Shown: piece by piece, positions 61,433-61,638 of the stretch | How positions within the stretch are numbered: position 1 is the stretch's first letter | Layout: the number at the start of each line of letters is the position of its first letter | NCBI RefSeq assembly: GCF_055900595.2 | Contig: NZ_CM148325.1 | Length of the DNA stretch: 64,000 nt | Direction: 5' to 3' (one strand) | Notes under the pieces: model-generated | What the model was told of the DNA's origin: nothing | What the model saw: the letters and a program-made list of their open reading frames with translations, nothing else | Databases searched by the model: none | Made by a program: the position numbers and the translations under genes

Positions 61433-61638
61433 TAAGCGATTATTCTCTCCATGTACTCAAGGTATAAAGTTTATCACATTTAAAAATACAGACGTTTTTT
61501 AAAGATTGAGAGTTACCTGTTAATAATAAGGTATCGGGTAACTCTCATTATGACAGAGCGCTTTCAAAAACAACCCTACGAAATGGCGAGCAACCAGACG
61601 TATATTAAGAAAGCCCTCATCAACATCTATTAAATTTA

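Follow-up and report, generated by a model that had tools for sequence, protein, structure and literature searches.

Hairpins at the ends of bacterial genes fall into several described classes. Between convergent genes, the bidirectional terminators of the SEnd-seq literature carry an A-tract on one side of the stem and a U-tract on the other, and both strands present a hairpin followed by a U-run. Canonical intrinsic terminators have a G+C-rich stem, a loop of 3–8 nt and at least five U in eight nucleotides. REP/BIME and ERIC are multicopy families with a consensus, intergenic palindromes able to stabilise upstream mRNA against 3′ exonucleases. Rho-dependent transcripts, finally, end precisely, just 3′ of stable stem-loops without a U-tract, and there is evidence that such stem-loops protect against PNPase and RNase II (Dar and Sorek, PMC6061677).

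We analyzed a 64,000-nt stretch of DNA (the window) at whose end the genes umuC, umuD (−), hlyE/clyA (+), ycgN (−), ycgM, ycgL and pliG follow each other, which is the E. coli order of the RefSeq records matching the spacer. Between the convergent hlyE (end at 61432) and ycgN (stop codon starting at 61639) lies a gap of 206 bp, in which a perfect 10-bp stem around a loop of about 19 nt had been noticed. Gene coordinates, sequence reading and a repeat finder all bore this out: GAGAGTTACC (61508–61517) and GGTAACTCTC (61537–61546) make up an inverted repeat of 10 bp without mismatch, its arms 19 nt apart, and a T61507/A61547 pair lengthens the hairpin stem to 11 bp. We read this repeat as the U-tract-less stem-loop with which a ycgN mRNA terminated by Rho ends and which holds off 3′ exonucleases, and assign this reading a probability of about 0.62. 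It draws on a mapped RNA end, a Rho termination region, the resemblance to the class of Dar and Sorek, the lack of a canonical terminator, an asymmetry of natural variants between the strands, and the persistence of the hairpin beside truncated hlyE.

The locus resembles the class described by Dar and Sorek (PMC6061677) in having a stable stem-loop without a U-tract, followed within a few nucleotides by a precise 3′ end and, farther on, by a putative Rho-sensitive region; it differs in its loop, which is longer than usual (19 nt, folded into a 4-bp helix and a hexaloop), and in having no clear C>G rut-like stretch past the hairpin, and the role of PNPase and RNase II here is putative. With intrinsic terminators it shares a hairpin at the gene end and an RNA end 7–8 nt after the stem; it departs from them in the missing U-tract (AAUCUUUA in its place), the AT-rich stem, the long loop and a coverage drop that bicyclomycin abolishes. 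Like a bidirectional terminator it is a single symmetric hairpin between two convergent genes, but neither strand has a U-run and a 3′ end has been mapped on one strand only. REP/BIME and ERIC are likewise intergenic palindromes, but the ycgN hairpin is single-copy and E. coli-specific; membership of a repeat family (REP/BIME, ERIC, MITEs) was rejected, the hairpin occurring at one chromosomal locus only in the E. coli genomes searched. The element class is thus well described, and the ycgN terminus, with its fold and gene assignment, is already present in a published supplementary table (PMC10687069); it has never been discussed, nor is it annotated in genome records. Its importance beyond annotation is small: it gives ycgN the 3′ boundary it was missing, with a 3′ UTR of 140 nt that runs up to a hairpin lacking a U-tract, in a spacer where the genome record annotates nothing, and may offer a clean case of the stem-loop ends that Rho-terminated mRNAs typically have.

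RNAs of both strands fold far below shuffled controls. The hlyE-sense RNA (+ strand) reaches −19.5 kcal/mol (z = −5.1 to −5.6) in a fold of 13 bp, one of them U·G; the ycgN-sense RNA (− strand) of the window reaches −15.3 kcal/mol (z = −3.6 to −5.1, varying with the flanks taken), and its K-12 counterpart −17.1 kcal/mol. In the ycgN-sense RNA the 19-nt loop is closed by the 4-bp inner helix and the hexaloop (Table 1), and the window A at 61522 turns a G-C pair of the inner helix into G·U. Within 240 nt of the ycgN stop codon the hairpin is the most stable local structure. Rfam 15 gave only chance-level matches for the spacer at permissive E-values (E > 5), none over the hairpin, and a scan of the whole window at gathering scores returned nothing at the hairpin; a promoter scan around it found promoter-like matches only at chance level. 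RefSeq records matching the spacer carry no annotation under the hairpin, and in the clyA literature its sequence was found only within PCR primer p79.

Table 1 Features at the 3′ end of ycgN and natural variants of the hairpin (window coordinates; variant bases in + strand notation)
Feature	Position	Strand	Source or remark
ycgN coding sequence, 148-aa RefSeq model	61639..62085	−	Start in the MG1655 record lies 15 nt further upstream
ycgN 3′ UTR, about 140 nt, stop codon to mapped 3′ end	61500..61638	−	PMC10687069 Supplementary Data 4
Whole ycgN-sense stem-loop: 11-bp outer stem, 1×4 internal loop, 4-bp inner helix, 6-nt apical loop	61507..61547	−	Repeat finder, RNA folding; fold also printed in PMC10687069 Supplementary Data 3
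Outer stem, 5′ arm of ycgN-sense RNA, UGAGAGUUACC	61537..61547	−	Sole variant seen: C>U at 61537 (RNA sense), giving a U·G pair
Outer stem, 3′ arm of ycgN-sense RNA, GGUAACUCUCA	61507..61517	−	Invariant across all sampled genomes
Inner helix GAUA (61532–61535) with UAUU (61522–61525; UAUC in most E. coli), apical loop CCUUAU (61526–61531)	61522..61535	−	Folding and variants
Putative ycgN mRNA 3′ terminus, transferred from MG1655 peak 1229409–1229420 (dominant 1229415 = window 61500), some 8 nt downstream of the stem; tail sequence AAUCUUUA	61495..61506	−	PMC10687069
Rho region, best-scoring position (MG1655 1229494)	61421..61421	−	About 80 nt beyond the hairpin, antisense to the last hlyE codons; PMC7815308
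hlyE (clyA) coding sequence, convergent neighbour	60521..61432	+	No 3′ end recorded for its strand in the tables consulted
Variant G>A (seven genomes), G>T (one)	61530		Apical loop of ycgN-sense fold
Variant G>A	61531		Apical loop of ycgN-sense fold
Variant T>C	61524		Inner helix of ycgN-sense fold
Variant G>A (three genomes)	61537		Innermost outer-stem pair of ycgN-sense fold
A in window, G in most E. coli	61522		Inner helix of ycgN-sense fold

Published maps of MG1655 place an RNA end at this hairpin on the ycgN-sense strand. The supplementary tables of PMC10687069 list an RNAtag-seq terminus in LB at 1229409–1229420 on the + strand of the chromosome (dominant position 1229415; signal 0.83; three libraries with adjusted P of 1e-7, 2e-16 and 3e-6; Supplementary Data 3). 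It is labelled “ycgN, Distant primary”, meaning that no other terminus lies within 100 nt of the stop codon, and is printed with the fold UAAUGAGAGUUACCCGAUACCUUAUUAUCAACAGGUAACUCUCAAUCUUUAA (−17.1 kcal/mol), inner helix included. The independent Barsheshet data set gives a terminus at + 1229408–1229418 (dominant 1229414; Supplementary Data 2), and the 3′ UTR is listed as 140 nt (Supplementary Data 4). Since the hairpin occupies 1229369–1229407 in MG1655, the mapped end falls about 8 nt past the stem. The original prediction had offered the hairpin as a processing or stability element or a protein-binding site; its presence in 5410 of 5426 complete E. coli genomes and an RNA end mapped at the stem speak for a processing or stability element, and the protein-binding site found no support.

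The window runs as the reverse complement of MG1655 (ycgN at 1228815–1229276, +; hlyE at 1229483–1230394, −) and its spacer aligns gap-free with K-12, and positions were transferred as 61433 + (1229482 − MG1655 position). Judged by the sequence, the same end would be expected in the window strain, whose hairpin is one wobble-compatible base away from that of K-12. No 3′ end appears in the spacer in the curated Term-seq list of Adams et al. (PMC7815308; three conditions) or in SMRT-Cappable-seq, which is weak negative evidence because ycgN is weakly expressed. A small RNA derived from the ycgN 3′ UTR was considered and rejected: in the tables of PMC10687069 (Supplementary Data 4), read density in the 3′ UTR (0.14–0.24) is similar to that in the coding sequence (0.11–0.16), and the flags are FALSE in all three libraries. 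The window strain also has a rare allele of the ycgN 3′ UTR, with ACC at 61574–61576 (GGG in most E. coli), A instead of T at 61593 and T instead of C at 61617; the clustered change at 61574–61576 could be a template-switch or recombination patch. Only eight of 5412 records are at least 99% identical to the window spacer, and the one exact match is strain Z0117EC0005 (dog, South Korea).

Beyond the mapped end, the ycgN-sense strand has a recorded Rho termination region that scores best at MG1655 1229494 (score 4.7, P = 4e-12; PMC7815308 Supplementary file 2), where upstream and downstream reads number 103 and 27 in untreated cells and 169 and 208 with bicyclomycin. The score is computed from 800-nt windows, so its resolution is coarse, and bicyclomycin is itself an inducer of antisense transcription where DNA is AT-rich and H-NS-silenced, as at this position; for both reasons the Rho dependence of the ycgN end is only putative. 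Over the first 100 nt past the hairpin, the ycgN-sense strand has 15 C to 17 G, and over 200 nt 35 C to 29 G; no C-rich, G-poor rut region was found in that stretch. This is a weak criterion, since rut-type enrichment of C over G is only a mild average tendency (Dar and Sorek, PMC6061677).

The course of events would be as follows. RNA polymerase transcribing ycgN from the − strand would pass through the 206-bp spacer, and the hairpin would form in the nascent RNA; with no U-tract behind it, polymerase would not be released efficiently. Rho would then end transcription farther downstream, in the untranslated stretch antisense to the hlyE 3′ end, and PNPase and RNase II, working 3′ to 5′, would trim the ragged ends until the hairpin stem stops them. 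What remains would be a 3′ UTR of 140 nt whose end is fixed some 8 nt beyond the hairpin. Both the trimming and the protection of ycgN mRNA are what we infer from the position of the end and the character of the stem-loop.

A tail of 8 nt is likewise what intrinsic termination would leave, and the hairpin might instead be a weak, non-canonical intrinsic terminator of ycgN, which with the partly U-rich tail AAUCUUUA releases polymerase 7–8 nt past the stem, the Rho signal then reflecting a read-through fraction only. A mapped end at the usual intrinsic distance, four U among the eight tail bases and a stable 11-bp stem are in its favor; exonuclease stalling at a duplex, however, predicts the same 8-nt tail. 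Only 5 of the 11 stem pairs are G-C, and the DNA after the stem (ATTATGAC on the + strand, AATCTTTA on the − strand) has no U-tract on either strand. The hairpin had been judged not to be a canonical intrinsic terminator for want of a T-run, and a terminator scan of 60000–62300 on both strands (at least five T in eight, loop 3–8) agreed, returning no match for hlyE or ycgN. Stem composition, loop length and tail all fall outside the definition of an intrinsic terminator. The loss of the ycgN-sense coverage drop under bicyclomycin also argues against intrinsic release, which we consider unlikely. An intrinsic terminator closer to ycgN, for which GGGGGCT...AGCCCTGTTTTT in K-12 was a candidate, was rejected: the first 83 nt fold no better than shuffled sequences (z = +0.45).

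A palindrome without selected function, arisen by chance or left as a relic in an E. coli-specific spacer, might also happen to stop exonucleases. Random 64-kb first-order Markov sequences contain 1.7 ± 1.25 perfect inverted repeats (at least 10 bp, 3–30 nt loop), and one such repeat somewhere in the window is statistically unremarkable; the significance of the hairpin comes from the experimental 3′ end mapped there and not from repeat statistics. The window holds 12 repeats of this kind, seven times the random level, which argues that most of them are not due to chance. Five more perfect inverted repeats of 10–11 bp with unusually long loops (23–27 nt) were seen at 1758–1806, 19433–19478, 21954–21998, 26564–26611 and 46898–46945.

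Conservation points both ways. A short-query search found the hairpin in 5410 of 5426 complete E. coli genomes, at one place per genome; it was not found in the other species examined, being missing from 80 ycgN loci of other Enterobacteriaceae and five other Escherichia lineages, where unrelated sequence replaces the DNA between ycgN and umuD. In Escherichia sp. E1V33 and E. whittamii the ycgN stop codon is followed by 1–1.8 kb of unrelated DNA, similarity returning upstream of umuD; E. albertii and a divergent “E. coli” lineage have a third, unrelated sequence; Escherichia sp. MOD1-EC7003 keeps the first 68 nt after ycgN and then has a deletion of the hairpin, hlyE and umuDC; and other genera have unrelated ycgN 3′ flanks, some with canonical terminators (e.g., Kosakonia). 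Downstream of hlyE in Salmonella (SPI-18) and Trabulsiella the hairpin is likewise missing, similarity ending about 35 nt after the stop codon. Conservation of the hairpin is shallow, confined to one species, and it is an ancient partner of neither ycgN nor hlyE; given its absence outside E. coli, cross-species covariation was unusable and only within-species variants were compared. Within the species, the hairpin is no better conserved than the spacer around it: 1 of 20 stem bases varies, and the flanks show about 0.1 variable sites per base, the sample being biased toward variants.

Two side observations concern the same segment. Among the four Escherichia loci compared, the stretch from umuD to ycgN (60254–61642, hlyE with both spacers) behaves as a replaceable islet whose breakpoints fall exactly at the stop codon of ycgN and immediately upstream of umuD; other Escherichia species have 1–1.8 kb of unrelated DNA in its place, and in MOD1-EC7003 about 320 nt of foreign sequence (3511–3832) joins the cut ycgN 3′ UTR to the region beyond umuC. 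In isolate FELIX_MS533 (NZ_CP137696.1, 1440–1510), a copy of IS1A has replaced hlyE; its junction, at about window position 61504, comes within 3 nt of the hairpin base but leaves the hairpin intact.

Natural variants bear on this question too. The 5412 records comprise 4351 with a 47-mer identical to that of K-12 and 1061 differing at one or two bases, and we took twelve variants at even ranking steps together with an earlier sample, a choice biased toward variants. Each of the six mutational events seen in the hairpin either falls within the loop or preserves pairing as a wobble on the transcribed strand. The three substitutions at paired positions (61537, 61522 and 61524) each leave a G·U pair in the ycgN-sense RNA, in which none of the 105 pair cells is broken, but an A·C mismatch in the hlyE-sense RNA. 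Variant folds keep the ycgN-sense shape at −15.2 to −17.1 kcal/mol, and the hlyE-sense fold weakens from −19.5 to −13.9 kcal/mol with an altered shape. There are three wobble events only, all C>U or A>G in the RNA sense, with about a 1 in 8 chance of agreement on one strand, and mutational bias is a possible contributor. The strand asymmetry, as far as variants can tell, agrees with the mapped ycgN-sense end. Neither the terminator scan nor the fold of the first 83 nt offered ycgN an alternative terminator. A hairpin without selected function seems to us unlikely.

The same hairpin might have a part in hlyE expression. One conceivable arrangement is that ycgN transcription runs on past the hairpin, antisense into the silenced 3′ end of hlyE until Rho stops it, and that the hairpin also caps the de-repressed hlyE mRNA, a single U-tract-less element setting both convergent 3′ ends and coupling ycgN read-through to hlyE expression. 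We regard this as improbable, and such an interplay between ycgN read-through and H-NS-silenced hlyE is the sole aspect of the locus that could be of wider interest. That the hairpin serves mainly the hlyE (clyA) mRNA, or both convergent transcripts, as a 3′-end or stability hairpin once hlyE is de-repressed, is very improbable. The hlyE-sense RNA does fold the more stably of the two, the scan offered hlyE no other terminator, and the 100 nt past the hairpin on that strand are C-rich and rut-like (25 C, 15 G). No hlyE-sense 3′ terminus, however, is listed in the consulted parts of the TRS tables of PMC10687069, in Adams et al. (PMC7815308) or in SMRT-Cappable-seq, hlyE being silent in those conditions; this is unsurprising, as hlyE is H-NS-silenced in laboratory culture (PMC2156107). 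Further against a main role in hlyE, the natural variants break hlyE-sense pairs; the hairpin persists in strains where hlyE is a truncated pseudogene, among them carriers of the 61530 and 61537 variants; and hlyE of Salmonella and Trabulsiella is followed by unrelated sequence, in Trabulsiella by a textbook canonical terminator.

A site acting at the DNA level, be it a protein-binding palindrome or the relic of a mobile-element end or recombination site, has in its favor perfect dyad symmetry, a place within the ycgN–umuD segment that varies between Escherichia species and the IS1 junction 3 nt away in one strain, but is hardly credible given a single copy in every genome, half-site matches in the window that do not exceed chance (5 vs. 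1.9 expected; 8 of 100 shuffles reach 5), “plasmid” matches that are chromosomal fragments carrying ycgN, no phage matches, no flanking target-site duplication, half-sites 29 bp apart center to center, which is unusual for a dimeric regulator, and wobble-only variation, which points to RNA.

Several neighboring features were recorded along with the terminal stem-loop of ycgN. A 27-codon ORF on the + strand, MTERFQKQPYEMASNQTYIKKALINIY (61550–61633), begins 3 nt beyond the hairpin, and its frame is open in K-12 as well. The idea of a small protein was rejected, the ORF having no Shine-Dalgarno sequence, four non-synonymous, radical changes among its five differences from K-12 and a frameshift in strain CT02, and it is probably non-coding. 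In the umuD–hlyE spacer, 60209–60287 (−) matches the Rfam C0299 small RNA at 112 bits; elsewhere in the window Rfam recognizes two RtT repeats together with two tRNAs (1904–2462), and two rdlD antitoxin RNAs (18577–19179). Another perfect hairpin of 10 bp, TTTTGCCGCC...GGCGGCAAAA, occupies 62146–62172 in the ycgM–ycgN spacer, and the primary 3′ terminus of ycgM listed in the tables of PMC10687069 (MG1655 1228773) coincides with it, again with no U-tract after the stem.
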